Shown piece by piece: positions 20,028-64,000 of a stretch of DNA of 64,000 nt. Below the pieces are notes generated by a model. It was not told where the DNA came from. It was given only the letters and a program-made list of their open reading frames with translations, and made no database searches. Source of the stretch: Thermodesulfobacteriota bacterium (GTDB taxonomy: Bacteria; Desulfobacterota; Desulfobulbia; Desulfobulbales; JAGXFP01); contig JBDLJC010000003.1 in the NCBI GenBank assembly GCA_039714535.1, positions 42,178-106,177 on the forward strand, in the 5' to 3' direction. The position numbers and the translations under genes are program-made. The number at the start of each line of letters is the position of its first letter. The first letter of the stretch is position 1.

Positions 20028-20083
20028 CACAAATCCTCTCAAAAGGAATAAATCTAAAATATTTTTAAAAAACGCGGATCTCG

Positions 20084-24800: not shown

Positions 24801-25363
24801 GGAAAGGGTACGGGGGGTTCAACCTCGTCAGTAAAAGGGTTGTCGCCGATCACCTGATACGGGGTGAAATAGTCGAGATAGAGCTCCGGCATCGGCCTGA
24901 CATTGATCCGGTCGGGAAAGATATCGACCACCTGTTCAATGCCGGCCACCGTATAGGTCAAGGTAGCGCCAACGAAGTAGTAAACTCCGGTCGGGGACAT
25001 GCCCCCTGATCCGGGCGACGGGATAATCAGCCAGTGGACTTCGGCCCTGGTCCCGGCCTTGACCGTCCCGGTGCCATCGACATCAGAGATATTGCTGGTA
25101 ACCGGCTCCTGGACGAAAAAGATCTCGTCCTTGCGGTTACCGTCACCGTCCTCGATCTCGACATCAACCCGGACGCTCGCAAGATCCTTGGTCAGCAGGT
25201 TGTTGGTCAGGACCAGTTTGGCGTCAAACGCCACCCGCTCAAGGGTCAACTCCTGAACGATTTCCAGCACCACCTTGGCACAGGCGCTGTCTGCAGCCTG
25301 GACACGGGAAACCGGTGCCGACAAAAACAGACTTAATACTATGAAAAGCCACAACCTCTTCAT
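21893..25363 (-). CDS. Secreted 1,156-aa protein. Domain order: ~450-aa N-terminal region of unknown function, Ig-like (FlgD-Ig-like) domains, seven-repeat beta-propeller, C-terminal beta-rich domain(s)
   Basis: ATG start with GAGG upstream. The signal peptide ends in ..SRVQA|AD. There are seven repeats of about 45 aa with the consensus (Y/E)P.(I/V)....(V/I)VWQD.R.G.WDIY. The Ig-like segment includes VPWDGKDDNGNFVPAADYTVQVLVSD. Confidence 0.85.
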   Translation of the reverse strand: MKRLWLFIVLSLFLSAPVSRVQAADSACAKVVLEIVQELTLERVAFDAKLVLTNNLLTKDLASVRVDVEIEDGDGNRKDEIFFVQEPVTSNISDVDGTGTVKAGTRAEVHWLIIPSPGSGGMSPTGVYYFVGATLTYTVAGIEQVVDIFPDRINVRPMPELYLDYFTPYQVIGDNPFTDEVEPPVPFPLAVRVMNDGYGPANKLKIDSAQPKIIENKQGLLIDFKLLGAAVNDSEVASSLTVDLGNLASKNGATAYWKMISTLSGRFSGFDVSFSHASELGGELTSLIKETNAHYLTHQVKVNLPGRDELLDYLAVRDVANNPSTTDDPMALPMPDVIYESEYPNGSTDKVEAEAAVTPVNLIASPERPTPQVPEVDIDLDLSANPPGWVYLRINDPSQGLLELLDVVRSDGVHLDPHNFWIDEKLDSDFQPVYLLQFIDYRGENGGTSNSYKLVYKQPDIDFMPPVTSLIFDGPAISGELTYITPQTRIILSGEDNEGGSGVAAMLRKVAGVDVDYVAALPFSLEAGDYSLEYFSVDRTGNEEEHKTAEFTVDDGAPQITDFTVSADGFSPQAPAGVTTVRTVSFTVNATDTVPGLSYSLQITDGNNKVIRTLDGTFLTATPIIVPWDGKDDNGNFVPAADYTVQVLVSDGLDDLSDPEATSHTAGSEVLTLSVNDWFAGVQVNGGSGDQLYPAASGSRVVWQDKRNGSWDIYLNDLVEGTLTQVVADPYGQERPAIDGDLIVWQDKRHGGWDIYGYRLGGTGEFTVSDRIGDQQYPTVSENWVAWQDNSAGNWDIFVKNLATNEVIQLTSHERDQVHPVLAAGDIVVWEDYRHGLGEIYKYDLTSGEETRLTVEPANSSQPVIFSGNVLWADQRDGHKEIYRRGGGGEAIRLTYGEGERSQPAINGGLLVYTDYSAGVDDPNLNFLDLVGSGGGTLTTNPARQEEPAIGDGFVVWQDNREGRYQIYMAELEVVALPIEVPIEVGFNLVATGQQLVGDYTTAGNLISSTPEGLTIEKALKYGTTMETEQFSEAGGAGGVDFDLSVGSALHLYSQSSGTLRVAAGGETTTYNLRVGANHIGLLNVPYGYKASDMMNSVGLANIVSVRRYDNTTGLWQSAAVRETSAGLEIIGKNFEIKPGDGLVVTMKNMVSGWAP

Positions 25364-27721: not shown

Positions 27722-30700
27722 TCAATTAAAATATTTTCTAAGATCCCAATCTACTGAATCCCATTTTTCTTTTGGTACGACATAAAAACCTTTATAAGAA
27801 TATTTTTTTAGACCATCAGCTAAAACGGCTTCTCCTTTAAAATAAACTCCTTTAAACCGAGGAACTCCCTTATAAATTCCATCTTCTACCGGACCAACCA
27901 TTTTCAAACCAGAGTTAATGCTTCCACCTATTTTCAAAATTCCACCAGCTATCTTTCCTTCGGCCCCCCCTGATGCTGTAAAATCAAAACCTCCAGTTCC
28001 ATCATACCAATCCGGCAAATCACACAGGTTCGCTTGTATATGCGCCTTAATTTCAACTTCACCCTTACCTTCAACATAGGCAAAAGCTGACACAAATTTT
28101 AATGGAAATTGATAGAAAGGAGCTTTTATTTTACCCACAATTTTACCTGAAATACCGCCTTCAATTACGGGTAAGAGTAGTTCTTTATTTTCACAGCAAC
28201 TTAAAGTTTTGTCATAATCGACTTGAATTGCACCGTCTAAAGACAATTCGGCATTTAAAAATTTAATATATTTTTTTGCAGGATTTAGGATAGGCGGTTC
28301 TACGATTTTAAAGCTTGTTTTGTCTGCCAATTCATCTGGAATAGGTTTCAATTCCCCGCCAACACATTCTCTACAAAAGAACTCATCAATTTTTGTTCCA
28401 TCCGGTTTAGGTATGAGTTGCCCATCCACAAAATCCCAACAAAGATCATCTTCCAAAACCACAACCCTAATAGTGCTTTGCCCATTAGATTTCAGAGGTA
28501 TTGCCACCTTGGATTCATCACAAGATACGCACTCTACATTAACAGAGACTCGATATTCGCCTGGTTCAGGGTATTTGTACGAAAAACCGGAGGTATATCT
28601 ACTTTCTCCATTCCCCAAACGCCACTCGAGAGTTTCCAGATCACATTCACCCTCGAAAGCAAAAATATTTCTAGCAGAGAAATCGAGTGTTTCACCAACC
28701 ACTATAGTTATTTCCTCTTCAAACCATTCCGCATCTTCACCAGAAAGCCGCACTAAACTTTCTATCTCAGCTTCGGGAGGGTGAGGGTCCCATACACAAT
28801 CACCATCCTCACATCTCTCGTTTATAGTACAGGCATCATCATCTCTACAATCCATACACTCACAAGGATCTGTAACAGCAATTGGAGTAGTTTGACCAGG
28901 GGCACCGCCTCCCCCCCCCTGCCAACCACCAGCATAACCACCACCGCCCGAGCCTCCACTAGGTGCAACAGCCGAACCAGCCGGGACACTAGGCGGACAA
29001 AGAGTTGGAATAGCCATCCGGAAATCGACCAGTCTTGAGATAATCCTTTCGAAAGCTGTGTTCGGACAGATGATAACGGAACTACTAAGTTTAATTGTTA
29101 CATAACTGAAACAATTGCCGCCGCCGAAACCGGTAACCTGCTCGAAGAGAGACTTGAATGATGACAGGATAGTCCGGTCTCGCTTGGTCACTCGATACTG
29201 GACGCGGATAGTCTCCATAGGTTCGATCCGATCAGGAATAAATTCCTTCATAACCTCGATATCAAAATCACCATAACTGCTCGGAAAGTCGATCCCGACA
29301 TCGTAGACGGCAATCAAACCATGGTTCTTGACGGTAAATTCACCGTTAAAGACTTCATTCACTCCCATCTCCGGCAGGGTAATACCGGCCGGTTCAGCGA
29401 TCAGCACCGGAGTCGGGACATTGGTCTCGAAGGTCTGGGTAATGGTGACCTCGTACTTATCCTCGATAACCGTCGGCGTTACGCTCCACTCGATTTCGAC
29501 CATATTGACCTCAAGGGCCAGGTGGACGGTGGAGGTAAGGCCGGGCTCGACTACGAATGAACCGGAGAACGGCACACAGCCAGGAGAACTGACATTGTAA
29601 CTATAGCGTCCTTCGGCAATATCATTAAGCATAACCGTGCCGTCACTAGCGGTTCGCAAGGTATAACGCAGATCCAGCAACTGCTGATGCTGCAGGGTAA
29701 TGCTGGCGCCGGAGAGCTTCTCGTAAATCTCATTCTGGACGTCAAAATAGACACTACCCACCGCATCGGAAGAGACGGTGACCTGGACGTTGAAGCGAAA
29801 GGGGACATGATTGTCCGAATAAATGACTAGACTGTCGTCGTAAATGCCTGGAGCGACGGTCTCACCGGGTCGTAACATAATGCCGATATCCTTGCTGCTG
29901 CCGGCATTAATATCACCAAGGAGCTTATCGATGGTCAAATCGAGCCACGGAATGGACGGGCCGTCGATCCGGGCATTTCGCAACACTTCCTGACCACTGT
30001 TACTGATGGTGAAATTAACCATCTTCTGGGTGCCACGCATCATCCCGGTATCGATGTAAGAGGGATAGGTCCGGATCTGCGGGGTCAGGGTGACCATGCC
30101 GACATTGACATTGACCTTGCCGCCCAGGCCCGCATCGGTATCGACGGTGAGGCTGGCGTAACCGGTCTGGGGCGCGTCATCGGCGGCGATGATCTTCAGG
30201 TAGACCCGCTGGTTTTCGCCGCCGCCGATGATCGTATCGCCGCTGTTAATGATCGTCGCGGTCAAGCCCTGCGAGGCCTCGCTGACCATGGTCAGACCGG
30301 TAATAGCAACATTGCCGAGATTGCGGATATTGACAGGGACATTGTAAGAGCGGCCCTGGGCGAGATTGAGATTGAAGACCGAAGGTGAAACTAGCAGGCC
30401 GATAATGTTGAAGGTGGCCTGAACGTCACGGTCGTTAAGCTCGGGATGGGTGGCCCAGACGGAATAGGTGCCCGCCTCGTTGGCCGCCGGGGTAAAGGTG
30501 TGACTGAAGTTACCTTCTGCATCGGTATCGACATTGAAGAACCGGTCGAAGCCTCTGGTAGACACGCCAATCCTAACCGGGACATTGGCTACCGGCAGAC
30601 CATCGATGCTGGAGAGCGCGGTGCCGCTGATCGTCACCGGTTTTCCCATATGATAGACTTCCTTGTCGGTAGTTGCGGCCGCAAAGTAAGGAAGATCGGC

Positions 30701-33700
30701 GATCTCCGACTGGACCGTCCGGCTGAAACCAGGAGCGGTGACCTGATCGGGCCAATCGTAATGGTAATAGGTCTTGGCGACCCTGGCCTCAATCAAGACC
30801 TTGGCCGGAGCGTTGACCGGTACCTGGAAGGTAATCGGCTCGGAGAGGAAACTTCCGCCCGGCTCCAATCTAGCGCTGGCATAGCCGTTGGAGTTGACCA
30901 CGGCGCTGCCGGTCCGCTGGTCAAGAAAACCCTTGGCCAGCAGATTGCCGTCCTGATCGCGGAGATAGACGCTAACCTCATCGGTGAGCCCGCCTCTCTC
31001 GCTGGTCAGCAACTCCAGTTGGGCAGAACCAAGATTGTTGACCTTGATCCTGACCTGAGCCTCGGCGCCACGCACCAGGGGCTCGTTAAACACCTCAAAG
31101 GCCGAACCGGCTGCTGCAACCGGAACAGCCGAGGTCCGGGTCAGGACGACGCTGGTTCCCGGCGCGCTAGCTAGGGTGACGGTGGTCACAACGGCGACGC
31201 TGTCAAGGGCATCAAGGGCCGTGGCCGCAACCTTTTCGATGATTTTCGCTTCACCAGCAACGAGACTGATCGGGCCGGGTTTGATGGTTTCCACGTTGCT
31301 ACCAACCTTAAAGTTCAGTTTACTGATTGTCAGGTCTTCACCGCCGGTCAGGGCCAGGGAGATCTTTTCAATCACCCCACGGCGCAGAACGGTATCGGCA
31401 GGAATGTCGATATCAAGGGCAGGCAATCTTACATCCCGGATCGGGCTCTCATTGCCTTGATCATCAACGACCGACACGCCATAGGTTGCGCCATTGCCGT
31501 CATAGAACCCATCTGAATAAGTGGTAGACGGGGTCGGCGCGCTATTGACCCGATTGCCGTTCCGATAGACATAGTAGCCCTGGATCGAACCAGCATCACT
31601 CTGCCAGGCAAGAACGGGGCCTGCATCTTCATGGCGGGTAAGATTTAGACTGTTTACAGGCGCCACAGGAATGGCCAGTTCGACACTTGTTGACAGAGCA
31701 CTTTCGTTACCCAATGCGTCAACCGAGGTCACACCATAAAAAATCTGGCTGGTCGATGGCGAGGTATCAATTGCTTCCGTGGTAGAAACGACTACTACCG
31801 GCTTGCGGCTGCCAACAGAAGCAAACGAAGAGGCCGCACGATAGAGCCGGTAAGAAGCAGGGATTTCGTCTTGTGGAACATCCCAAACAGCAGTCACACC
31901 GTCACCATCGAGACTTAGGCTTAGACCGGATGGAACAGCCGGACCAGTGCGGTCGGAAACACCTTCAACTTCTGCACACCGGTCCCCTTCGGTTCCGAGC
32001 AGACCTACTGCGGAGACCGAATAGTTCCAGGCACCGTCAGCAGACGGCAGCTCAGAGAAAGTCAGACCGGTAGTGGTGCCGATCTCAACAGCAACACCGG
32101 CAAGACGTCTGTAAACTTTATAGGCCTGGACTCGATCAACCGAACGGCTCCAAGAGAGATCAATTTTACCACCTAATTTTGACGTTGCAGTGAGATCGGT
32201 CGGGGCAGCAGGCGCCGGTGGTGTATCAGTATAGAGATAGAGTTTTTCTCCCGTGGCGACAGTCTCACCGGTGTTGCCGAAGTTGTCGATAGCGTTAACT
32301 AGTTTAAACGTTGCTTCGCCCTCGGCAAGGGGTGAGATGTCTATTTGCGCCGTCCAATGCAGATCGTCGCCGGCCATCACCGGACCATTAAATGCGGCGC
32401 TATTGCCAGTGGCATCGAACAGTGTCATTACCGGGATATCGACCGGCGCTTCGTCGAAGGAGAAATCAACGGTCAGAGATTCCGTGCCAATCTGCTGTAA
32501 AACTGTAGGTGTTGTAATGGTTGCGACCGGACCTCGAACATCAAGGGTCGGGCCTTGGCCCTGACTGTTGCCACGGTTGCCGACAAGATCTTTGCCGGAG
32601 AATTTCCAAACAGTCGGTCCGTGCGGCCCGGCAGGGTCGATCTCCAGGACGGCGCTGTAGTTGAGTTCGTCAACCTTGACGGGAGAAAGCACAATGGGCG
32701 AGCCTATCTGTGGCTCCAAGCTGAGGAATGGCATTTCCTGCAACGGCTCGGAAACGGTCATGCTAACGTTTATCGTCCCGGGACCGGCGACAACGGTAGA
32801 AGCAGGAGTGCCGCCGTTAAACGCGAACATAATCCCGGTTGCGGCCGGCGCGATACCATCCGAGGCAACATTGATCTGCGTGGAGAGACCACTTTCATTG
32901 CCGGCACCGTCAAGGGCTGTTACTGCGTAATAGCTTGCCGTATCGTCAGCCGGAATAATCTCTTTGAATAGATAGGGAATCGGGGTGTTGTTTAGGGGTT
33001 GCATCCCGACAGTTACCGAAGTCGGCAGCGACGCTTGATCGCTATATAAATTATAGCCGGTCGGCAATTCACCCGGCCCTGATTGCCAGTTGAACTGGAT
33101 CGTGCCACCAGGTAATACCTTGGAGACAAGATCCACCGGTGCCGGTGGGGCCCCGGTATCAACCGTGATGATGTGCGGCATGCTGAAGGCGCTGGCGCCA
33201 CCACGGTGGGTGGCCTGCAGGTAGATATTGTTATCTCCTTCGGCTAGAGGAACCGAGGTAAAGGTCCAACTGCCATCGGCCGCCGTATTGGTTTCGCCGG
33301 TAATCTGATCATTGACCTTTAAGGTTACAGTGGTATAGAGATCGGCGGTGCCTCTAATAGTAACCAGATAGTCCGGTGTTATTGCCTCGACTGTGTGGCT
33401 ACCGTATACAGGCACATTCGGCGGGGCCAGACTGACCGTGACTGTTTTGCTTGTTTCCGTGAAGTTGCCGTGTTCGTCATAGGCGACAACTTTGACCGAA
33501 TGGTTGCCGTCACTTGCCGCCACCAGATTCCACAGATAGCTGACGGATGATCCGGTGGTGCTCTGGACCAGGCTGCTGTCGATATACAGCTCAACCCGGG
33601 CCATTGCGCTTTCGTTGTCAGTACCATTTGCCTTGAGAGTAACCGTTCTGGCCAATACCTGATTCTGGGTCAGCGGGATATCACCCTGGGAACTAACAAT

Positions 33701-36700
33701 GAACGGCCCTGCGATCTGCGGGCCGGTCGCATCCTGACGGGGCTCGACACTGATAGTCGATACAACAGGGTTTTCCAGACCAAAGGTGTTGACGACGGTC
33801 ACCCCATACTGATAGGTCGTGCCGTTAGTCAGACCGGGATCGGTATAGGTCGTTTTGTTCGTATCAACGGCCAGCTGCATAGCACCGACATCTGTTTGGA
33901 GATCAGCGGATTGCAGACGGTAGACGCGATAATTTTTGAGATACGGGGAACCGGACGCAGCCCAACTAATGGTGGCCTGATTTTTACCCGGTTCGGCAGC
34001 CAGAGCGGCAGGATTATCGAGGCGGGTGACGGCCTCGGTGACAACCCCGCCACTTTCGGGATTCTCCGCGTCTTTGCCGGTCAGTTTAAACCTGTACAGG
34101 GTGGCGTCAGCCAGGTTGTTCAGCGTATGGGAAATCGCTTCACTGCCGAGGGATATACCCGTATCAGGGTATCCTGGCCCATTATCTACATAAAGGAGCT
34201 GATCGACAAGATCACCGTTGCTACCGGCATCGATACTGGCGGTCCATTGCAGGTTAATACCGTTGCCGTTGGCTGTACTGTAGGTTGGTGTCGCAACAAA
34301 ACCGCTAACTTCCGTCGGCGGCATGGTGTCGACCGGAAAGGCAGTGGCAAAATTAACGGTGGCGGATGAATTGCCGGCCAAATCAACCGGGATTACCACG
34401 AAATAATAAGTAGTACCTTCAGTCAAGCCTTCGATTACGAATGATTTGGTGCCGGAGTTTGTCGTAGCGATTGCCTGCAGTCCGCTGACATCCGTTATCT
34501 CGGAGGTGCTGTAATAAATCCGGTAATAGGCCAGATCGACGGGCTCTTCGTAGTTGTTCCAACCCAAGCGGACCTGATCGCCGCGCCCGGAACCATTGGC
34601 CATCAACACCCCCGGCCCAAGAGCGGCAGGCGGGGCGGCATCATAAATCAAATCAAGAGTCTTGGTGGCAGTATTACCGAGTGCATCGGAGGCTCTAAAG
34701 ACCAGGTGGGTGGCAAGCCCTTCGACTAGGGTGATCTCGTGATTCCAGGAAACACCCAAGTCATCGGCGTTGATAATTGTTTCGCCATTCAGGGTAACGC
34801 TGCACCCCGGTTCCTTGGTTCCTGCCAGGGTCTGCGTTGCGGAGGCGGCCTGATCCTGGTATTCGTCAATGGTAAATACCGGCGGCGTGGTATCGAGCTC
34901 TACTGTAACAGTGGTTTCGGGGAAGGAGTCATTCCCGGCAAGATCACGGGTTGTTACCTTAAGGATGTTTTCACCTTCCTTGAGCGGATAACTGGTACTC
35001 CAGTCGGTTTGATCCGAAACATCGACCTTCTTGACGCCGTTGATCACGATACCTGTTTGAAGTTGCTTGCTACCGCTAAGGACCTGGCTGGAAACGGTAG
35101 TTGGAGAATCAACTGAATCTACCGTTGGTGGGGCCGGGGCTGCTGCATCAAGGACAAAAGTGCCGGTATCCTGAGGAGTCATCTGATTACCAGCCACATC
35201 CCCGGCGTTAGAAACTTCGACAACATAATCACCATCGCCGGTGGTTTCGGTAAAGGCTACAGTACCTCTCCAGGTATTGTGATTTCGCCAGGAACCGTTG
35301 ATCGAGAGAGACTGGCTGCCCCCCGTTCGGTGCAAAACCACAGACGGTTGCAATGAGGTGTTCATTGACTCATTAAACTTAATTGTGAAGGTTACTGTTT
35401 CGACCTTATGCGGGCTGGGCGGACTCATAGTCAGAGACTCAACCTGCGGAGCTGTTTTGTCCACGGTAAAACCGAAAGAAACCGTGCTGGTATTGCCAAC
35501 TTTATCAACGGGGTTAAGAGTGACGGTAACAATCCCTTCTGCCAGCTCCGTTTGGTGGATAAATTCGAGGGCGTCGTTCTCGCTGTTTACGCCCCAGGTT
35601 CCAGTTACTATTGAACCACTGGAATCTTCAACCGTAGCGTTTTCATGGGAGCGGGTGAGGTCAGGGCCTGACCCGTAATTGGGATCGCTGAGGAAAACGG
35701 ATATTTTACCGGTTTGATTTGTTCGGGAATTTATTGCCGGAATTGTGGATGAAACAGTCGGCCCCTGATTGTCCTTGATGATCGTAACTGGTTTGGGCTG
35801 ACAAATATTACCGTGGCTGTCACCAGAGGTTAAATCAAGAGTATTTCTGCCATTATTCAGATCAACCTGAATCTCCCAACTGGTAGCGTTATCAAGCAGA
35901 ATGGTTTCCGTACCGTCAACAATCAGTGATGAATCGGCTTCTTTTGTGCCCCGCAGAACAAATTGGGACTCGCTGGTGTAAAGAAACAGAGCCGGGTCAA
36001 CAGTCGGTTGGGCCGGAGGAGTAAGGTCTCCGGTTAAAACACTAAGTTCTTGAGAATAAGGGCTGTCGTTTGACAGCTTGTCGACGGCTTTTGCTACATA
36101 ATAATATATTGTGTCAGTTGCATGGGCAGCGGTGTCACTAAAAGTAGTTGCACCGGTCTGGCCAAGATATTGGTAACCGGACCCTTTGGTAATGCTGCGA
36201 TATATACGATATATATCAATGTCACATTCCGTATTCGGCTGCCACTTAAGAATGACCTTGTCATGGTCAAGGGTAGCGGTTAGTCCTTCCGGGGCGACCG
36301 GGCTGCCGACCAAGTTGGAAACCGCGCTCTTCTCAATGGAGAACGAACTTCCAAGACCTGTATAACCAATGGCTTTAACCGCGACAAAGTATGTCTGGCA
36401 ACCTGCCAGATTATTAAGTCGAATAGTGCCGGATGTTGTGGTCAGGGGCGGTGAATATTGACCGCTTTCCGTGCCGTGATATACCTGATATTCCTTTATG
36501 TCCGGCGAAAGGTTATTAGACCAACTGACATCTATATAGCCATCGCCGCTAGTTAAATTAATACTGGCGGGCGCTACCGGCGGCGCCAGGGCCACGCTAA
36601 TCGGATAATCGACCGAGGTTGGATTGCCCAATGAATCATAGACCTTGACGGTTAATGTATAACTGCCGTCACCGACTTCGATAATATTCCAGGCCCAGCT

Positions 36701-39700
36701 GTATTCCGGTCCGCTCGAATCGGTTGCCTGCAGGGAGTTATCCAGATAAAACTCAACATGACTGACCCCGGAGAAATCGGCGGCGGCAACCCTAAAACTT
36801 CCCTGTCTAATGAGGGTTGGAGTTGTGGCAATATCGGCGGTGTTATAGGTAAGAGCGCTAATGACCGGGCCATTCACGTCTTTAAGATTGCTGAGAACCG
36901 AGGTTACCTGTTGTCGCTCACCGCCGGCGCTATCAACACTGGTCACCGCCAAATAGTATTTCGTATCCTGACTCAAACCGGTCATCGCACTACTGGTACC
37001 GGTGACAGACTGGACCGGGGTCATTCCCGCCACTGAGGTGAAAGGGGTTTCACTCACATAAACATTGTACTGTTGGAGATGGACCGCCGGTTCAACCGGG
37101 CTCCAGGAGATGCCTATGTTGTCGACATTTACAATAGTCGTAACCCCGGTCGGATTAGCCAGCCGGAACGATATAGCAACCTCTCCCGAGGCCGGGCCGA
37201 AACCGGTCCGATTGAAAGCCTTGGCGCTTAAAAGATTGTCACCGATATTCAGAGAGTAATTAAAACTGAATTGGCCATTATCATCGACTTTGGCGGTGAC
37301 GCCGGTGCTGACCCCATTGTTGAACAATTCGACGTCGGTGAATTTTTCGGCTGTGCCGTTGACCGTGATATCAGGACTGCTGAAAACTGCTCCGGTTACA
37401 GGCAGGGAAATAACGGGAGCATCCGGTAACGCCAAAACGACGCTGAAATTCAGATCGGTGGTTGAAAGATTGCCTACCGTATCGTAGGCCTTGATGGTCA
37501 GGAGATGTTGACCATCACTCAGCGCCACGATGTTCAGAAAACAGTTAAAATCGGGCCCGCTGTCATCCGTACAGACAAGACCACCGTCAACCAGGAATTC
37601 GACCCGATCAACACCGGAAAAATCGGTGGCGCTAACACTTATCGTGGGAGGTATCGTAAATTCATATCCTTCCGTCAAATTATCAATTCCGGCCAGAAGA
37701 TCGGTGACCAGCGGACCATTGACATCTTTTAGATGGCCCACGACCGGCACAACGGTTTTCTTTTCACCATCGGCATAATTAACACTGGTGACCGCTACAT
37801 AATAGTTGGTGTCAATGGCGAGACCGTTAAGGTCAACCGTCGCAACTGTGACGGTCTGGACCGGCGTCATATCAACAACGGAGGTAAAAGGTGTTTCACT
37901 TCGATAGATATTGTAATGATCGAGAATATCGACCGGGCTGACCGGAGCCCAGGAAAGAGTCAGGTGATCTACTTCGGAAACCAGAGTAAGCCCGGTCGGA
38001 TTATCGAGAAGAGTATTAAGGGTAGCGGTGACCTCGTTGCTATGGGGACTGTCTCCGGCATTATTCCTGGCGATTGCCGTAATAGTGTTTTCACGCTCAG
38101 TCAAAGTAACCGGAATAGCAAACGACCCATCCGCTTTGTTCGGAGTCGGATTGCCATAGGGCTGACCGTTCAGCAGGATGACAATATTCATCTCCGGCTC
38201 AGCAGTACCGCTGACCGTAATCGCACCAGCGGTGAAGATATCACCACTGACCGGGTGGGTAATAACCGGTGCCTCAGGAAGAATTACCGCTAGTTCCAGA
38301 GAATATGTGACCGAAGATTTGTTGTCAAAAGAATCAAAGGCTTTAATCGTTAAGGTATATATGCCATTCAGTAGACCAGCCATATCAAACTGATAAGTAT
38401 ATGCACTAGCACCACTGGTGTCGGCCAGAACAACCGAGTCGTTTATGGAGACTTCCACCAGCTTGACATTATAAGGATCGTGGACATTAAAAGTGATCGG
38501 TCCCGAACCGTATATGATCATATTATTGTTTACAGGGTCGCCATCAAAGAGGATACCGGTTATCTCCGGCAATTCTGGCTCGAAATCCTCAAGAAGCCAG
38601 ATTTCTGTGAGTGCCGCTCTGGTAGACAGGAGGGGGTTATCATTTACGAAACTTAGGTTGATATTCCCGGTTGTATAATAATCAGAAGGTATGGAGAACT
38701 CATGTTGCACCGGCATCATAGTTGGCATTACCATGGCAGAATGAACCACTTTGCCTGGTCCAGCATTTATACTCTGCAGACTTCCTTCTTCACCGTCACC
38801 ATTAAAATAGCTGGTCCTGATTTTATATCTCTTCTCAGGATCGAGGTCTGTATAGCCCACTTCGACTGCATTAGAACCCCAGGCTATAGTTCTGTCCGGT
38901 CTGAGGCTAATTGGATCCCAGAGATCATCTCTGACTCCAGCATCCAGAATTGGTTCAGTTATCGAACCAGCTGAAGAGCCAGCTGCAAAACTATAATTAA
39001 CATAGGACATTTCGGTTGCGACTGTGTCCAGATAATCATCAAATGAAACATTATCGGATATTTTTCCTCCGGTACCATCTGGATTACTAGTGAGGTTATA
39101 GGGTCCGCTACCATCGAAATCCCCCCACCAGTTTCGGGTGGCATCAGCGACATTAGCGGTCTGGTTCTTGACAGCCAGCCCTCGGTTCATGAAAATCTGG
39201 TTGTTGGAGATCTCTGCGTTTGCAGTTCCCAGAAGTTCAACACCATCGGAAAGGTTGGTTGATATGTGGCTGAAACTGATGTCCGCATTGGAAGCCCCCT
39301 CCAACCTGATGCCATCACCATTATTTCCCCAGATCCTGCTACCGATTATATTCAGGGTGCCGTTGATACTCCTGATACCATTTGACGAACTCTTCGATAT
39401 TTCGGTGTTTTCAATACGTGCACTAACCACTCCGTTGAAGTAGAGAGCCCCGCTCCCATTTCCACCGGCATAAAGAATCTTGGTGTTATTAAAGATCGAT
39501 CCTTCACCAAATAAAGAAGCATTGAGGGTAATTCCTTTCCAACTACCATTTACCGGATAGGTCGCCATAACATCTTTGTTAGTGTCACCGCCATGATAAT
39601 CATCCTTGATAGTAGTAAAGATGATCTTTTCGTTGAAAGTCGCGTCGGCAATCAGGGCGCCGTCAACATCGACTACCAAGGCCCCACCCTGAAACTTTAC

Positions 39701-41716
39701 AATGACTCCGGGATCTATCTTAAGAGATGTATGAGTTGGAACTCTAAGGGTTCCAAAGATTATATATACACCGATCTCATTGCCAGTTCCCTTACCCCAA
39801 ACCTGCAGATTCTTGTCCGTCTGCAGGTTGTTGCCATGGACTTCTAAGAAGTTGTTAACATTAGGTGTGAGTGTATTTGTGCTGTCAGGAAGTGCGCTGG
39901 CCGGAATACGAAATGCAATGAGATTACCCGTAATAATATTATTGGTAATTTCCGGCGCATTCTGACCATCCGTAAAATAGATCCCGTAATTAGTATTATT
40001 CCTGATCGTGTTGCCGTCTATTGTCGGCCGAACATAGCCAACAGTGTCAGGTGTATAATGAGATACGTAGATTCCATGCCGGCCATTACCTTCAATAGTA
40101 TTATTACGGTCAACAGGAAGACTGGCTGCATGATAATAAGCATAATGATTAATGCCATCGAGGGTATTACCGGTAATTGTGTTGTTCTCGATAACCGGAT
40201 TTTCATTGTATGTGTAAATACCATGACTGCTGTTGTTGGTGATCGTGTTCCAGGAAATTAAAGGGGTGCTGATATGTGTGTAAATACCATATGAACTGCC
40301 GGCGGTTATCACGCTATTCTTTATAGTGACATCTGTATTATTCATATAGATGTTGCCAGACCCTCCGGATCCGCCATAGCTAACCAAGACATTGGCAAGG
40401 ATTGAATCAGGCGAACCATTCACGAAATTCAATCTATCCCAACTACCGGCTGTTGCGGTAGTCGCGCCACCATCGCCGTTACTGTCCCCGCCGTATTTAT
40501 CATCTTTGATTGAGGTAAATACAATCTGGTCGGCCCCAGAGGCATCGGCAAGCAATGTGCCCTTTACTGTCAGGTTTCTACCCGGCGCAAACTTGACAAT
40601 CGTCCCGGGCTCTATCGTCAACTTGACCCCTGTGGCTACTGTGGCATTACCACCAGCCTGATAATAGGTATTGCCGGTCTCAAAAACCAGATCATGATCA
40701 AGCTGGTTGCCCCAATACTCGAGATGATTATCTATAGTATTGGGAGAAAGGGTGTTGTTGGCTGAAGGACCGGGTAAAGAGGAAAACGGCAGCCGGAAGA
40801 CTTTTTGATTACCCGTAATAATATTATTGGTAATTTCCGGCGCATTCTGACCATCCGTAAAATAGATCCCGTAATTAGTATTATTCCTGATCGTGTTGCC
40901 GTCTATTGTCGGCCGAACATAGCCAACAGTGTCAGGTGTATAATGAGATACGTAGATTCCATGCCGGCCATTACCTTCAATAGTATTATTACGGTCAACA
41001 GGAAGACTGGCTGCATGATAATAAGCATAATGATTAATGCCATCGAGGGTATTACCGGTAATTGTGTTGTTCTCGATAACCGGATTTTCATTGTATGTGT
41101 AAATACCATGACTGCTGTTGTTGGTGATCGTGTTCCAGGAAATTAAAGGGGTGCTGATATGTGTGTAAATACCATATGAACTGCCGGCGGTTATCACGCT
41201 ATTCTTTATAGTGACATCTGTATTATTCATATAGATGTTGCCAGACCCTCCGGATCCGCCATAGCTAACCAAGACATTGGCAAGGATTGAATCAGGCGAA
41301 CCATTCACGAAATTCAATCTATCCCAACTACCGGCTGTTGCGGTAGTCGCGCCACCATCGCCGTTACTGTCCCCGCCGTATTTATCATCTTTGATTGAGG
41401 TAAATACAATCTGGTCGGCCCCAGAGGCATCGGCAAGCAATGTGCCCTTTACTGTCAGGTTTCTACCCGGCGCAAACTTGACAATCGTCCCGGGCTCTAT
41501 CGTCAACTTGACCTGATCAACAACCGTAACACTGGATGTAACATGATGAACATCTGAGTTGGACCAGTATGTATCCTGGGAAATTGTCCCACCTTCATTG
41601 ATAGCAGCCACGCTATTTGAATAAAGGAACAACGGCAAAAAAGAACATAGACAAAGGACAAATAATTTCCGCCTGATCATCATTCTTCTCTTTTTGGTAT
41701 TTATGGCACTTGTCAT
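27722..41716 (-). CDS. Giant (4,664-aa) secreted modular protein. It has an N-terminal duplicated right-handed beta-helix (PbH1/NosD-like) region, dozens of Ig-like/FN3 modules, and MG/alpha2-macroglobulin-like and carboxypeptidase-regulatory-like domains. These are followed by a Gly-rich linker, a Cys-rich repeat, a PKD-like domain and an unknown ~210-aa C-terminal domain.
   Basis: Single 13,995-nt ORF. The signal is KKRRMMIRRKLFVLCLCSFLPLFLYSNSVAA. The beta-helix repeats follow the pattern N(N/T)I.GN..(H/Y)GIY. There are multiple FN3-like units (..L.WAPV....L..Y.IYRSETPF). Three super-repeats of about 850 bp (Ig, Ig, FN3) start near 38575, 37725 and 36880. The linker is GGSGGGGYAGGWQGGGGGAPG. 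The Cys-rich unit is CRDDDACTINERCEDGDCV. The PKD-like segment is WRLGNGESRYTSGFSYKYPEPGEYRVSVNV. Confidence 0.9.
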   Translation of the reverse strand: MTSAINTKKRRMMIRRKLFVLCLCSFLPLFLYSNSVAAINEGGTISQDTYWSNSDVHHVTSSVTVVDQVKLTIEPGTIVKFAPGRNLTVKGTLLADASGADQIVFTSIKDDKYGGDSNGDGGATTATAGSWDRLNFVNGSPDSILANVLVSYGGSGGSGNIYMNNTDVTIKNSVITAGSSYGIYTHISTPLISWNTITNNSSHGIYTYNENPVIENNTITGNTLDGINHYAYYHAASLPVDRNNTIEGNGRHGIYVSHYTPDTVGYVRPTIDGNTIRNNTNYGIYFTDGQNAPEITNNIITGNQKVFRLPFSSLPGPSANNTLSPNTIDNHLEYWGNQLDHDLVFETGNTYYQAGGNATVATGVKLTIEPGTIVKFAPGRNLTVKGTLLADASGADQIVFTSIKDDKYGGDSNGDGGATTATAGSWDRLNFVNGSPDSILANVLVSYGGSGGSGNIYMNNTDVTIKNSVITAGSSYGIYTHISTPLISWNTITNNSSHGIYTYNENPVIENNTITGNTLDGINHYAYYHAASLPVDRNNTIEGNGRHGIYVSHYTPDTVGYVRPTIDGNTIRNNTNYGIYFTDGQNAPEITNNIITGNLIAFRIPASALPDSTNTLTPNVNNFLEVHGNNLQTDKNLQVWGKGTGNEIGVYIIFGTLRVPTHTSLKIDPGVIVKFQGGALVVDVDGALIADATFNEKIIFTTIKDDYHGGDTNKDVMATYPVNGSWKGITLNASLFGEGSIFNNTKILYAGGNGSGALYFNGVVSARIENTEISKSSSNGIRSINGTLNIIGSRIWGNNGDGIRLEGASNADISFSHISTNLSDGVELLGTANAEISNNQIFMNRGLAVKNQTANVADATRNWWGDFDGSGPYNLTSNPDGTGGKISDNVSFDDYLDTVATEMSYVNYSFAAGSSAGSITEPILDAGVRDDLWDPISLRPDRTIAWGSNAVEVGYTDLDPEKRYKIRTSYFNGDGEEGSLQSINAGPGKVVHSAMVMPTMMPVQHEFSIPSDYYTTGNINLSFVNDNPLLSTRAALTEIWLLEDFEPELPEITGILFDGDPVNNNMIIYGSGPITFNVHDPYNVKLVEVSINDSVVLADTSGASAYTYQFDMAGLLNGIYTLTIKAFDSFDNKSSVTYSLELAVILPEAPVITHPVSGDIFTAGAITVSGTAEPEMNIVILLNGQPYGNPTPNKADGSFAIPVTLTERENTITAIARNNAGDSPHSNEVTATLNTLLDNPTGLTLVSEVDHLTLSWAPVSPVDILDHYNIYRSETPFTSVVDMTPVQTVTVATVDLNGLAIDTNYYVAVTSVNYADGEKKTVVPVVGHLKDVNGPLVTDLLAGIDNLTEGYEFTIPPTISVSATDFSGVDRVEFLVDGGLVCTDDSGPDFNCFLNIVALSDGQHLLTIKAYDTVGNLSTTDLNFSVVLALPDAPVISLPVTGAVFSSPDITVNGTAEKFTDVELFNNGVSTGVTAKVDDNGQFSFNYSLNIGDNLLSAKAFNRTGFGPASGEVAISFRLANPTGVTTIVNVDNIGISWSPVEPAVHLQQYNVYVSETPFTSVAGMTPVQSVTGTSSAMTGLSQDTKYYLAVTSVDSAGGERQQVTSVLSNLKDVNGPVISALTYNTADIATTPTLIRQGSFRVAAADFSGVSHVEFYLDNSLQATDSSGPEYSWAWNIIEVGDGSYTLTVKVYDSLGNPTSVDYPISVALAPPVAPASINLTSGDGYIDVSWSNNLSPDIKEYQVYHGTESGQYSPPLTTTSGTIRLNNLAGCQTYFVAVKAIGYTGLGSSFSIEKSAVSNLVGSPVAPEGLTATLDHDKVILKWQPNTECDIDIYRIYRSITKGSGYQYLGQTGATTFSDTAAHATDTIYYYVAKAVDKLSNDSPYSQELSVLTGDLTPPAQPTVDPALFLYTSESQFVLRGTKEADSSLIVDGTETILLDNATSWEIQVDLNNGRNTLDLTSGDSHGNICQPKPVTIIKDNQGPTVSSTIPAINSRTNQTGKISVFLSDPNYGSGPDLTRSHENATVEDSSGSIVTGTWGVNSENDALEFIHQTELAEGIVTVTLNPVDKVGNTSTVSFGFTVDKTAPQVESLTMSPPSPHKVETVTFTIKFNESMNTSLQPSVVLHRTGGSQSLSINGSWRNHNTWRGTVAFTETTGDGDYVVEVSNAGDVAGNQMTPQDTGTFVLDAAAPAPPTVDSVDSPTTVSSQVLSGSKQLQTGIVINGVKKVDVSDQTDWSTSYPLKEGENILKVTTRDLAGNDSFPETTVTVELDTTPPVFTIDEYQDQAASATQTLAGTKEPGCSVTLNGETIINADDLGVSWNHEITLVEGLATHLVFRASDALGNTATKTLDLIYDAAPPAALGPGVLMANGSGRGDQVRLGWNNYEEPVDLAYYRIYYSTSEITDVSGLQAIATTNSGTKSFVIEGLTEGTTYYFVVIPVDLAGNSSATVNFATAFPVDTMPPTEVSGFVATPTYSTANGNGINLQWTASIDAGSNGDLVDQLLYVDNGPGYPDTGISLGSEAISHTLNNLADATLYRFKLTGKDAENPESGGVVTEAVTRLDNPAALAAEPGKNQATISWAASGSPYLKNYRVYRLQSADLQTDVGAMQLAVDTNKTTYTDPGLTNGTTYQYGVTVVNTFGLENPVVSTISVEPRQDATGPQIAGPFIVSSQGDIPLTQNQVLARTVTLKANGTDNESAMARVELYIDSSLVQSTTGSSVSYLWNLVAASDGNHSVKVVAYDEHGNFTETSKTVTVSLAPPNVPVYGSHTVEAITPDYLVTIRGTADLYTTVTLKVNDQITGETNTAADGSWTFTSVPLAEGDNNIYLQATHRGGASAFSMPHIITVDTGAPPAPVDLVSKVLPGGTIQFNWQSGPGELPTGYNLYSDQASLPTSVTVGMQPLNNTPIPYLFKEIIPADDTASYYAVTALDGAGNESGLSTQINVASDGIAPAATGIMFAFNGGTPASTVVAGPGTINVSMTVSEPLQEMPFLSLEPQIGSPIVLSPVKVDELNYSAVLEIDPAGPHGPTVWKFSGKDLVGNRGNSQGQGPTLDVRGPVATITTPTVLQQIGTESLTVDFSFDEAPVDIPVMTLFDATGNSAAFNGPVMAGDDLHWTAQIDISPLAEGEATFKLVNAIDNFGNTGETVATGEKLYLYTDTPPAPAAPTDLTATSKLGGKIDLSWSRSVDRVQAYKVYRRLAGVAVEIGTTTGLTFSELPSADGAWNYSVSAVGLLGTEGDRCAEVEGVSDRTGPAVPSGLSLSLDGDGVTAVWDVPQDEIPASYRLYRAASSFASVGSRKPVVVVSTTEAIDTSPSTSQIFYGVTSVDALGNESALSTSVELAIPVAPVNSLNLTRHEDAGPVLAWQSDAGSIQGYYVYRNGNRVNSAPTPSTTYSDGFYDGNGATYGVSVVDDQGNESPIRDVRLPALDIDIPADTVLRRGVIEKISLALTGGEDLTISKLNFKVGSNVETIKPGPISLVAGEAKIIEKVAATALDALDSVAVVTTVTLASAPGTSVVLTRTSAVPVAAAGSAFEVFNEPLVRGAEAQVRIKVNNLGSAQLELLTSERGGLTDEVSVYLRDQDGNLLAKGFLDQRTGSAVVNSNGYASARLEPGGSFLSEPITFQVPVNAPAKVLIEARVAKTYYHYDWPDQVTAPGFSRTVQSEIADLPYFAAATTDKEVYHMGKPVTISGTALSSIDGLPVANVPVRIGVSTRGFDRFFNVDTDAEGNFSHTFTPAANEAGTYSVWATHPELNDRDVQATFNIIGLLVSPSVFNLNLAQGRSYNVPVNIRNLGNVAITGLTMVSEASQGLTATIINSGDTIIGGGENQRVYLKIIAADDAPQTGYASLTVDTDAGLGGKVNVNVGMVTLTPQIRTYPSYIDTGMMRGTQKMVNFTISNSGQEVLRNARIDGPSIPWLDLTIDKLLGDINAGSSKDIGIMLRPGETVAPGIYDDSLVIYSDNHVPFRFNVQVTVSSDAVGSVYFDVQNEIYEKLSGASITLQHQQLLDLRYTLRTASDGTVMLNDIAEGRYSYNVSSPGCVPFSGSFVVEPGLTSTVHLALEVNMVEIEWSVTPTVIEDKYEVTITQTFETNVPTPVLIAEPAGITLPEMGVNEVFNGEFTVKNHGLIAVYDVGIDFPSSYGDFDIEVMKEFIPDRIEPMETIRVQYRVTKRDRTILSSFKSLFEQVTGFGGGNCFSYVTIKLSSSVIICPNTAFERIISRLVDFRMAIPTLCPPSVPAGSAVAPSGGSGGGGYAGGWQGGGGGAPGQTTPIAVTDPCECMDCRDDDACTINERCEDGDCVWDPHPPEAEIESLVRLSGEDAEWFEEEITIVVGETLDFSARNIFAFEGECDLETLEWRLGNGESRYTSGFSYKYPEPGEYRVSVNVECVSCDESKVAIPLKSNGQSTIRVVVLEDDLCWDFVDGQLIPKPDGTKIDEFFCRECVGGELKPIPDELADKTSFKIVEPPILNPAKKYIKFLNAELSLDGAIQVDYDKTLSCCENKELLLPVIEGGISGKIVGKIKAPFYQFPLKFVSAFAYVEGKGEVEIKAHIQANLCDLPDWYDGTGGFDFTASGGAEGKIAGGILKIGGSINSGLKMVGPVEDGIYKGVPRFKGVYFKGEAVLADGLKKYSYKGFYVVPKEKWDSVDWDLRKYFN
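39922..40628 (-). repeat. Copy 2 of a 707-bp perfect direct repeat inside the giant gene (beta-helix block)
   Basis: Appears identical to 40807-41513 at an offset of exactly 885 bp. The edges were read directly: GATTACCCG... on the low side and ...CAACTTGACC on the high side. The encoded 235 aa (VKLTIEPGTIVKF...NNIITGN) are identical in both copies, and the shadow ORFs 40018-40224 and 40903-41109 are identical. Confidence 0.9.
40807..41513 (-). repeat. Copy 1 of the 707-bp perfect direct repeat inside the giant gene
   Basis: See copy 2. The two copies are separated by a unique 178-bp spacer (40629-40806) encoding QKVFRLPFSS...ATVATG. Confidence 0.9.
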
Positions 41717-62798: not shown

Positions 62799-63086
62799 AT
62801 GGCTGAAACGATTGATGAAATAACAATAAATTACGAAGAAGATGGCATTCAGGTGGTTAAGGAGCTTGAAAAGGAGGTCCTGACAAAAGGGGCCTGGTCA
62901 ACAATTATCTTCAAGTACCAGCAATGGGAAAAAGGCAAGAATAAATATAGCGAAGATAAATACACTATCCGCCGTTACCGCAAAATGAAAGGCGCCTATT
63001 CTCCCCAATCAAAATTCAATATCTCCGGAAAGAAACAGGCTGCCCAGCTAGCCGAGATCTTGGAAAAATGGTCCAAAGAGAGCTAA
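62799..63086 (+). CDS. Small hypothetical protein
   Basis: 95-aa ORF starting at ATG 62799, preceded by GGAGAGAG. The product is Lys/Glu-rich with no motif I recognise. Confidence 0.45.
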   Translation: MAETIDEITINYEEDGIQVVKELEKEVLTKGAWSTIIFKYQQWEKGKNKYSEDKYTIRRYRKMKGAYSPQSKFNISGKKQAAQLAEILEKWSKES

Positions 63087-63154
63087 GGCTGGATTAATAT
63101 GTAAATTTTGTGGTAGAAATTCAAGTATATACCGAACTACGTGGAGATAAACCT

Positions 63155-63370
63155 TTGAAGATAACTATCGAATACTGCGCCGCATGAAACTATCTTCCCC
63201 GTGCTTCCAGTTTGGAAGAAGATATAAAAAAAAGCTTTGATTTGGAGGTTGAACTTATTGCCGGTTCAGGCGGGGTTTTTAATGTCTCTATGGATAGCGA
63301 AGAAATATTCTCTAAACGGAAAGAGGGGCGCTTCCCGGAACCAGCAGAGATACTAGCCAAACTCAAATAA
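63155..63370 (+). CDS. SelW/Rdx-family selenoprotein with in-frame UGA (Sec) at 63185-63187
   Basis: It is absent from the ORF track because of the TGA. TTG 63155 has GGAG 8 nt upstream. The translation is (M)KITIEYCAAUNYLPRASSLEEDIKKSFDLEVELIAGSGGVFNVSMDSEEIFSKRKEGRFPEPAEILAKLK. It carries the CxxU redox motif, the GSGGVFxV motif and the IFSK..GRFPE motif typical of the Rdx fold. Confidence 0.8.
63192..63223 (+). promoter_or_regulatory. SECIS-like hairpin immediately downstream of the UGA
   Basis: ATCTT[CCCCGTG bulge]CTTCC-AGTTT-GGAAGAAGAT. The inner 5 bp (63204-63208 with 63214-63218) stack on an outer 5 bp (63192-63196 with 63219-63223). The hairpin starts 5 nt after the UGA. Confidence 0.5.
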
Positions 63371-63455
63371 AATTTACAACAGATCCTGACTTAAATGTAA
63401 AACAAGATTGCAACTATCCAGCGTAATGCCCCAACCTGGAGGGGAAACACCCAAA

Positions 63456-63602
63456 TGTAACTGTTCAGCAGCGCCGCTTCGCTGCTGCTCCAGATGTGTA
63501 CGCCCACTGGTAGTGCCCTTAGGGTATATGCATATGCGAGACAGCCTGATCGTGCACAGGTAAGCGTAGACTCTCCGGATGGAGAGCTGCTGAACAGTTA
63601 CA
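63456..63602. repeat. 147-bp element bounded by 17-bp perfect inverted repeats (structured RNA leader or MITE-like element)
   Basis: TGTAACTGTTCAGCAGC (63456-63472) is the exact reverse complement of GCTGCTGAACAGTTACA (63586-63602). The interior contains a competing local hairpin, CAGCAGC-GCCGCTTC-GCTGCTG, and a CTCTCC-GGAT-GGAGAG hairpin. Confidence 0.6.
63559..63573 (+). repeat. Dispersed intergenic motif copy (GGTAAGCGTAGACTC)
   Basis: Lies inside the inverted-repeat-bounded element upstream of the FHA gene. Confidence 0.45.
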
Positions 63603-63644
63603 CAAGATTCAAATTTACATCTCATCCAACAAGCAGTGGAACAC

Positions 63645-64000
63645 ATGCCAGAACATTCCAAACAAGCTCTTCTCCAAGAACTTAATCCTGAAGGATCTCC
63701 GGGAAACAACTGGAATCTCACAGGAAAGAACAACTTTACGATAGGGCGCGAAGCAACTAACGAAATTATTTTGCCGTATTCATGGATATCACGCAAACAT
63801 ACGATGATCCAGCGGAAAAGCGGCGGTATCTTTCACATAATAGATCTTGGCAGCTCCAACGGCACTTACCTGAACAACAAGAGAATCCACGCACCAGCTA
63901 TTCTCAACAACGGCGATCTGATCACCCTGGGTAAAACGACTATAAAATTTATCCAGTACATGGAAAATAGCGATTACGATAAAGGTGAATCAGAACTGAC
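63645..64000 (+). CDS. FHA domain protein (3' end beyond window)
   Basis: It is absent from the ORF track because the frame stays open to the window edge. The translation is MPEHSKQALLQELNPEG...FTIGREATNEIILPYSWISRKHTMIQRKSGGIFHIIDLGSSNGTYLNNKRI...GDLITLGKTTIKF. This matches the FHA signature (GR...ISR.H...DL.S.NGT.LN). Confidence 0.8.
   Translation, partial: MPEHSKQALLQELNPEGSPGNNWNLTGKNNFTIGREATNEIILPYSWISRKHTMIQRKSGGIFHIIDLGSSNGTYLNNKRIHAPAILNNGDLITLGKTTIKFIQYMENSDYDKGESEL

Follow-up and report, generated by a model that had tools for sequence, protein, structure and literature searches.

The locus described here raises the question of whether a TGA codon (63185-63187) ends a short reading frame, or is decoded as selenocysteine (Sec) within a gene that runs across it. 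The codon lies on the plus strand of the window, i.e. the whole stretch of 64,000 nucleotides that was analysed. The initial annotation had proposed an overlooked gene of the SelW/Rdx type with a CxxU motif and a downstream hairpin. In the present study, this proposal was compared with protein profiles, solved structures and homologous loci, and we hold with high confidence that the locus is a genuine Sec-encoding SelW-like (Rdx) gene with a product of 71 residues.

The reading frame and the family of its product

The full coding sequence of the SelW-like/Rdx-family selenoprotein is predicted at 63155-63370 on the plus strand, with a TTG start, 71 sense codons, UGA as Sec at codon 11 and a TAA stop at 63368-63370. 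Read directly from the sequence, the frame consists of L/M-KITIEYCAA, the TGA, sixty sense codons (NYLPRASSLEEDIKKSFDLEVELIAGSGGVFNVSMDSEEIFSKRKEGRFPEPAEILAKLK) and the TAA. A Shine-Dalgarno-like GGAG (63143-63146, plus strand) precedes the TTG (63155-63157) with a spacer of 8 nt. The frame given in the initial annotation, with the GGAG, the 8-nt spacer, the TTG at 63155, the TGA and 71 codons, is exactly the one found in the sequence. The closest relative among the best 80 of 313 relatives (L001) has the same site and start (CGCGGAGGTACAACT-TTG), so that both the GGAG and the TTG are kept. Over the whole frame, the comparison of the window with L001 (85% identity) gave a dN/dS of 0.22. An in-frame GTG further upstream (63110) was considered as the start and rejected, because the extension meets a stop in L001.

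The redox motif is formed by the last codons before the TGA and the TGA itself. The TGC at 63176-63178 (plus strand) encodes Cys8 of CxxU, a residue that is Cys in 79/79 distinct homologues and is aligned with the first Cys of CxxC in the structures 3DEX and 2FA8. The TGA, as the predicted codon of U11, is aligned with the second CxxC Cys of the solved Rdx proteins, and C-A-A-[TGA] of the window thereby falls on C-T-Q-C of 3DEX and 2FA8. The product contains C8-A-A-U11, G37-S-G-G-V-F-N-V44, I51-F-S-K54 and G58-R-F-P61; the CxxU, the G-rich turn and the IFSK...GRFP motifs that had been pointed out before are all present in the read-through product. In alignment A3, the residues S38, G39, G40, I51, S53, K54, F60 and P61 are invariant.

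In the profile searches of the read-through product, Sec was written as Cys. The Pfam Rdx profile (PF10262) gave 74.1 bits against a cut-off of 22.6 (E=1e-20), with profile positions 1-72 of 74 covered. A 52-aa stub that starts downstream of the TGA was still above the threshold when searched alone (43.2 bits, E=4.8e-11), hence about 31 bits are contributed by the TGA region and the residues ahead of it. In addition, TIGR02174 (CXXU_selWTH) gave 59 bits (cut-off 34.2), and the NCBIfam equivalog NF041051, 'SelT/SelW/SelH family (seleno)protein', gave 94.5 bits against a curated cut-off of 88. The Rdx assignment of the initial annotation was borne out by PF10262, TIGR02174 and NF041051, each with a score above its cut-off, and the profile scores place the read-through frame far above chance expectation. 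Judged by its sequence, the product belongs to the Rdx family.

Sequence matches in the PDB were 3DEX, 2FA8, 2OJL, 2OKA, 2P0G, 2OBK and human MIEN1. The fold was examined by proxy, using the AlphaFold2 model of an 82%-identical homologue (P0001) in which Trp is written at the Sec site. This model has a pLDDT of 93.4 and consists of the elements E2-8, H14-27, E31-37, E42-46, E49-53 and H63-70. The order is beta1-alpha1-beta2-beta3-beta4-alpha2, which is thioredoxin-like, and the redox motif lies between beta1 and alpha1; CxxU directly follows the strand of residues 2-8. The top Foldseek match of the model was the SelW-related structure 2FA8 (TM 0.85-0.93, rmsd about 1 A), followed by other bacterial Rdx structures and then by MIEN1, mouse SelW and thioredoxins. 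By the proxy of P0001, the product would have the thioredoxin-like fold of Rdx proteins.

It had been stated that the gene is invisible to stop-to-stop ORF finders. This is right for the full gene, which is missed, but the 52-aa stub ORF from an internal TTG to the TAA (63212-63370, plus strand) is listed as the sole output of such a finder, and pipelines give it a name. The UGA could then be a stop, the stub the functional product, and the 10 codons upstream either untranslated or a tiny leader peptide, as might be thought from ORF finders and public annotations that call this stub and name it Rdx family protein, and from its own passage of the Pfam threshold (43 bits). However, the stub is without CxxU and without beta1 (residues 2-8), which is the first strand of the central sheet in the P0001 model, and direct reading finds no GGAG-like Shine-Dalgarno site ahead of the internal TTG (63212). 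The codon at this position among the homologues (best 80 of 313) is CTG (53), TTG (21) or ATG (3); since it is mostly CTG or TTG, the internal TTG is a conserved Leu and not a start. Furthermore, the 10 codons before the TGA are conserved as protein and the start codon is conserved as well. We regard termination at the UGA with a functional stub as very unlikely.

Conservation of the in-frame TGA

A scan of one genome per species gave 313 relatives, of which the best 80 loci, with 79 distinct sequences, were used. These 80 come from Desulfobulbia (including Candidatus Electrothrix), Thermoanaerobaculia and other Acidobacteriota, KSB1, Eisenbacteria, Krumholzibacteriota, Zixibacteria, Verrucomicrobiales, Planctomycetaceae, Myxococcota and Burkholderiales. 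They cover at least eight phyla, and the nearest relatives of the window are Desulfobulbaceae. The TGA stands at codon 11 in 80/80 loci, with coding conservation on both sides, and a Cys codon at the Sec site was found in none of the best 80 of 313 relatives. The prospect that homologues terminate at this position, which the initial annotation had raised against its own reading, did not materialise, as all 80 keep the TGA in frame. Their start codon lies ten codons upstream of the TGA and is ATG in 63/79 distinct sequences; in the same 79 sequences, the residues Y7, C8, N12, Y13 and P15 are invariant and I5 is conserved. These alignments demonstrate that the UGA is conserved, with purifying selection on both of its sides.

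The same observations bear on the possibility that the gene is a pseudogene, namely a decaying remnant of a CxxC Rdx gene in which TGA has replaced an ancestral TGC or TGT for Cys. Only one substitution separates TGA from TGC or TGT, Cys-form Rdx proteins do exist, all solved bacterial structures have CxxC, and no Sec machinery is present within the 64-kb window. Against this, the same TGA occurs in 80/80 loci (best 80 of 313); because the shared TGA spans many phyla, independent nonsense mutations are excluded as its cause. Decay is also at odds with the dN/dS of 0.22, with the intact start, ribosome-binding site and stop, and with a covarying RNA hairpin downstream, whose upkeep restricts synonymous change. 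The comparative sequence data effectively refute a pseudogene, and we consider it extremely improbable.

Another explanation is that the UGA is read as Trp or Gly under an alternative genetic code. Nine database homologues (P0001, P0002, P0005-P0011) are indeed recorded with Trp at this site. However, all of these entries come from short metagenome contigs of 500-1900 nt, for which the choice of code is unreliable; Trp is recorded in them because the contigs were called with a TGA=Trp code. Elsewhere in the window TGA is a normal stop that ends 10/30 long ORFs, the majority clearly identified by Pfam, and thus the code is the standard one with no genome-wide reassignment. In addition, solved homologues have the redox Cys of their CxxC at this site, and the many phyla represented by the relatives use the standard code. 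For the window, an alternative code is already refuted, and the chance that it applies is vanishingly small. The Sec reading of the UGA is the one followed below.

The hairpin downstream of the UGA

The conserved core of a bacterial SECIS element is predicted at 63204-63218 (plus strand), where CUUCCA (63204-63209) pairs with UGGAAG (63213-63218) around the loop GUU (63210-63212). The spacing from the UGA to the GUU loop is 22 nt. In the window the core is enclosed by a lower stem, UAUCUU (63191-63196) with AAGAUA (63219-63224), to give a window-specific stem-loop at 63191-63224 (plus strand). The single-sequence minimum free energy (MFE) fold had -10 kcal/mol with z=-1.33, and 22/200 shuffles were as stable. 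Because the fold of the window alone is not beyond chance, the support for the hairpin comes from the comparison of homologues.

For this comparison, 81 sequences (the window and the best 80 of 313) were anchored on the UGA in alignment A1. The consensus structure is G-C-Y-U-C-C-A / G-U-Y / U-G-G-N-G-G-C, whose two arms occupy columns 19-25 and 29-35. Pairing across the inner stem (63204-63209/63213-63218) amounts to 87%, 3 of its pairs have compensatory changes, and its covariation score was reached by 0/500 shuffles. Thirteen sequences show a switch between CG and UA at the 21:33 pair, and at the 24:30 pair CG is replaced by GC or UA. The apical loop is G[U/G]N in 81/81 sequences. Furthermore, in the homologue alignment the third-position entropy falls from 1.5-1.9 bits at codons 14-16 to 0.2-0.7 bits at codons 17-21, and the Ser codons under the hairpin are UCC in 75/76 and AGU in 68/68 cases, although six Ser codons are possible. 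The drop in entropy and the fixed Ser codons are therefore a direct sign that the sequence is constrained as RNA as well as by its coding role. That the hairpin is conserved and covaries is established by these alignments, and the inner hairpin at 63204-63218 is presumably the core bound by SelB.

The initial annotation had taken a stem-loop at 63192-63223 as the SECIS element. It does enclose the real core, but the conserved part is the inner hairpin at 63204-63218 only. The outer stem was rejected as a conserved element, as it is 49% paired across the homologues, which equals the shuffles. In most homologues a seventh G-C pair is found at the base of the upper stem, where the window has a G.A and an upper stem of 6 bp.

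The published consensus of bacterial SECIS elements (PMC13188914) has an apical loop of 3-9 nt with G in the first two loop positions, a stem of 4-16 bp, 16-37 nt from the UGA to the loop and an MFE of -7.5 kcal/mol or lower. The window falls within this consensus with its GUU loop, 6 bp, 22 nt and -7.9 kcal/mol, an energy that includes the window-specific lower stem and is -6.2 kcal/mol for the core hairpin alone. The region after the UGA, which had been put forward for SECIS prediction, thus agrees with the published consensus and in addition shows covariation. Rfam gave no family, SECIS families included, over 63050-63700 at E<=10.

Two further features of the RNA were observed. The motif CUUCC occurs twice (63194-63198 and 63204-63208), and either copy can pair with GGAAG at 63214-63218. 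The competing register, in which 63194-63198 is paired with GGAAG, is more stable than the SECIS fold (-10 vs -7.9 kcal/mol), and this competing fold might lower the efficiency of Sec insertion. At the fourth pair of the stem (A1 columns 22/32), U stands opposite C as a conserved non-standard pairing in 42/73 distinct sequences, mostly from Thermoanaerobaculia (such as L004, L006 and L009). The same columns hold U-A or U-G in the window and in other Desulfobulbia, and G-C in two sequences. By analogy with the bulged U of fdhF, the U.C pairing may be a lineage-specific feature for recognition by SelB.

Decoding, genomic surroundings and known systems

No tRNA-Sec was found in the 64-kb window, where ARAGORN and Rfam (gathering thresholds) gave tRNA-Pro only, and E. 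coli SelA, SelB and SelD had no tblastn match in the best-80 loci or in the window, for whose 64 kb such a negative is uninformative. When TGA-interrupted frames with a CxxU or UxxC context were searched over the whole window, only that at 63185 was credible; therefore no second selenoprotein lends independent support. Since the window carries none of selA, selB, selC and selD, we infer that these genes lie elsewhere in the genome, where the presence of an Rdx selenoprotein gene predicts them. This is supported by the purifying selection on the UGA and the SECIS element as well as by the literature. Thermodesulfobacteriota count among the bacteria richest in selenoproteins (PMC13188914), and for Desulfotalea psychrophila 12 selenoproteins are reported, SelD and a SelW-like protein among them (PMC1794560). 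This species belongs to the same order as the nearest relatives of the window. A search for literature that joins cable bacteria with selenocysteine returned nothing relevant.

We infer Sec insertion at the UGA and a redox function of the product. Translation would begin at the TTG (63155), and the ribosome would not terminate at the UGA (63185-63187). The mRNA 3' of the UGA, which also encodes A17-S-S-L-E21, would fold into the hairpin at 63204-63218, whose loop has G and U at its apex. By analogy with E. coli fdhF, the hairpin would tether SelB-GTP-Sec-tRNA(Sec), so that selenocysteine is inserted. In the folded protein, C8-x-x-U11 would cycle between a selenenylsulfide and the thiol/selenol form, and the product is most likely a thiol-dependent redox protein.

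The window represents ordinary chromosomal sequence, with asd, leuA, pssA/psd, ilvB, a futalosine-pathway gene, panC, xseA, tRNA-Pro, dacB, pheA, moaA, tsaD, ksgA, hslUV, xerC/D, ispA, dxs, skp and an OmpA-family gene. Three very large ORFs are found on the minus strand, at 27722-41716 (4664 aa), 14706-20042 (1778 aa) and 21893-25363 (1156 aa), and are accompanied by ORFs with a rhodanese domain or of purple-acid-phosphatase-like type. Bacterial Ig-like repeats (Big_13, Big_3_3) are present in the 1778-aa protein and a FlgD-Ig domain in that of 1156 aa.

Around the Rdx gene, the order is a glycogen-phosphorylase-like gene, a 95-aa ORF, the Rdx gene and an FHA-domain gene, which among the best 80 of 313 is shared only with L001. 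The 95-aa ORF (62799-63086, plus strand) has no Pfam match; given the 95% identity to its counterpart in L001, it probably encodes a genuine small protein that is conserved. A gap of 68 nt with no predicted terminator separates it from the Rdx gene, and the two are possibly co-transcribed. In a scan for promoters and terminators around the Rdx gene, the counts were not above those of shuffles, and a single terminator-like match inside the coding sequence was treated as chance. Among the best 80 of 313 loci, those of Thermoanaerobaculia have a co-directional upstream block of an unannotated 527-aa protein, a DnaJ-domain protein and an unannotated 353-aa protein, with a GAF-HD (HD_5) protein downstream of the Rdx gene, and those of Desulfobulbia are found beside a DtxR-like iron-dependent repressor, a RecN/SMC-like protein and an HD phosphohydrolase. 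No neighbour shared across clades was found in these 80 loci, and as the neighbours are clade-specific, no functional inference is drawn from the context.

An insertion of about 200 nt (63392-63604) lies between the stop of the Rdx gene and the FHA gene, and is absent from the syntenic L001. It has perfect terminal inverted repeats of 17-19 nt (AATGTAACTGTTCAGCAGC) with arms at 63454-63472 and 63586-63604 and a folding energy of -81 kcal/mol (z=-3.06); the direct repeat A[A/C]ACAAGATT flanks it. Rfam gave no match to it (63050-63700, E<=10). The 19-mer arm recurs in 31 metagenome contigs that are unrelated, 17 of which carry it in hairpin elements that are 43-192 nt long and have interiors of a variable, modular make-up. 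The insertion looks like a member of a dispersed MITE-like or REP-like repeat family.

For annotation, the locus should be one 71-codon coding sequence with a translation exception of UGA to Sec at 63185-63187, and not a 52-aa fragment or nothing. The gene would mark its source organism, a relative of the Desulfobulbaceae, as a user of selenocysteine. Public protein sets hold this protein in two wrong forms, the one with Trp at the Sec site in the nine entries named above and the other as 52-54 aa stubs starting after the UGA (P0003, P0004, P0012-P0014). Some of the stubs are named 'Rdx family protein' or 'selT/selW/selH-like putative selenoprotein', and no close relative in the protein database was recorded with Sec. 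The storage of close homologues as stubs or with Trp points to a general weakness of these sets.

A wider reading is that the Rdx clade of about 71 aa is obligately Sec-dependent, so that Cys cannot replace Sec, and that gene and SECIS element spread horizontally as one Sec cassette. It is suggested by the 0/80 Cys codons (best 80 of 313) and by the near-identical SECIS RNA fixed in the A-S-S-L codons; we put it forward tentatively and think it rather less likely than otherwise. As bacterial SelW-like proteins are still only predicted selenoproteins, the clade would be a clean test case.

Bacterial SelW-like selenoproteins were reportedly described by Kryukov and Gladyshev in 2004 and by Zhang et al. 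in 2005 and 2006. The family, the CxxU motif and the SECIS type are known ground, described since 2004-2006, and hence the present result is an annotation fix and poses no new biological question. In the Sargasso Sea selenoproteome, SelW-like proteins ranked first in abundance among the families, with 48 genes (PMC1088965), and Cys homologues of the family were noted to be few or absent in organisms that use Sec (PMC1794560). It was noted for Epsilonproteobacteria that SelW genes are often completely missed by genome annotation (PMC4607533), and a 2026 review lists the bacterial family as 'predicted with high confidence' only (PMC13188914). The window gene shares with this family the CxxU after the first strand, the class of about 70-75 aa and the small in-ORF hairpin with a loop G, and its close relatives (best 80 of 313) are without Cys forms. 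It differs in the TTG start, in an upper stem of 6 bp with U-A where most relatives have C-G, and in the lineage-specific lower stem, but nothing is different in kind.

The Cys-form Rdx proteins (2FA8 Atu0228, 3DEX SAV_2001, 2OBK, 2OKA, 2OJL and 2P0G) have the same fold as the P0001 model (TM 0.85-0.94, rmsd about 1 A) and the redox motif at the same place, with 28-40% sequence identity. They differ in having CxxC, a length of about 100-108 aa and extra termini. The sequence that follows their motif is (N/R)WL(P/L)RA(A/G)W(L/M)AQE, whereas the window has NYLPRASSLEED; in contrast to the Cys forms, the A-S-S-L codons of the Sec forms double as the SECIS hairpin.

Mouse SelW (2NPB) and MIEN1 (2LJK) also share the Rdx fold and CxxU/CxxC (Foldseek probability 1.00, TM 0.72 and 0.78), but the identity is only 18-30%. 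Eukaryotic SelW uses a kink-turn SECIS element in the 3' UTR, together with SBP2 and eEFSec. The window differs from it in having a SelB-type hairpin inside the ORF, and its hairpin is not of the kink-turn kind. Although its stem sequence differs from that of E. coli fdhF and it is without the bulged U, the window copy resembles the fdhF element as a hairpin inside the ORF just 3' of the UGA, with G-U at the start of the loop and a spacing of about two dozen nt.
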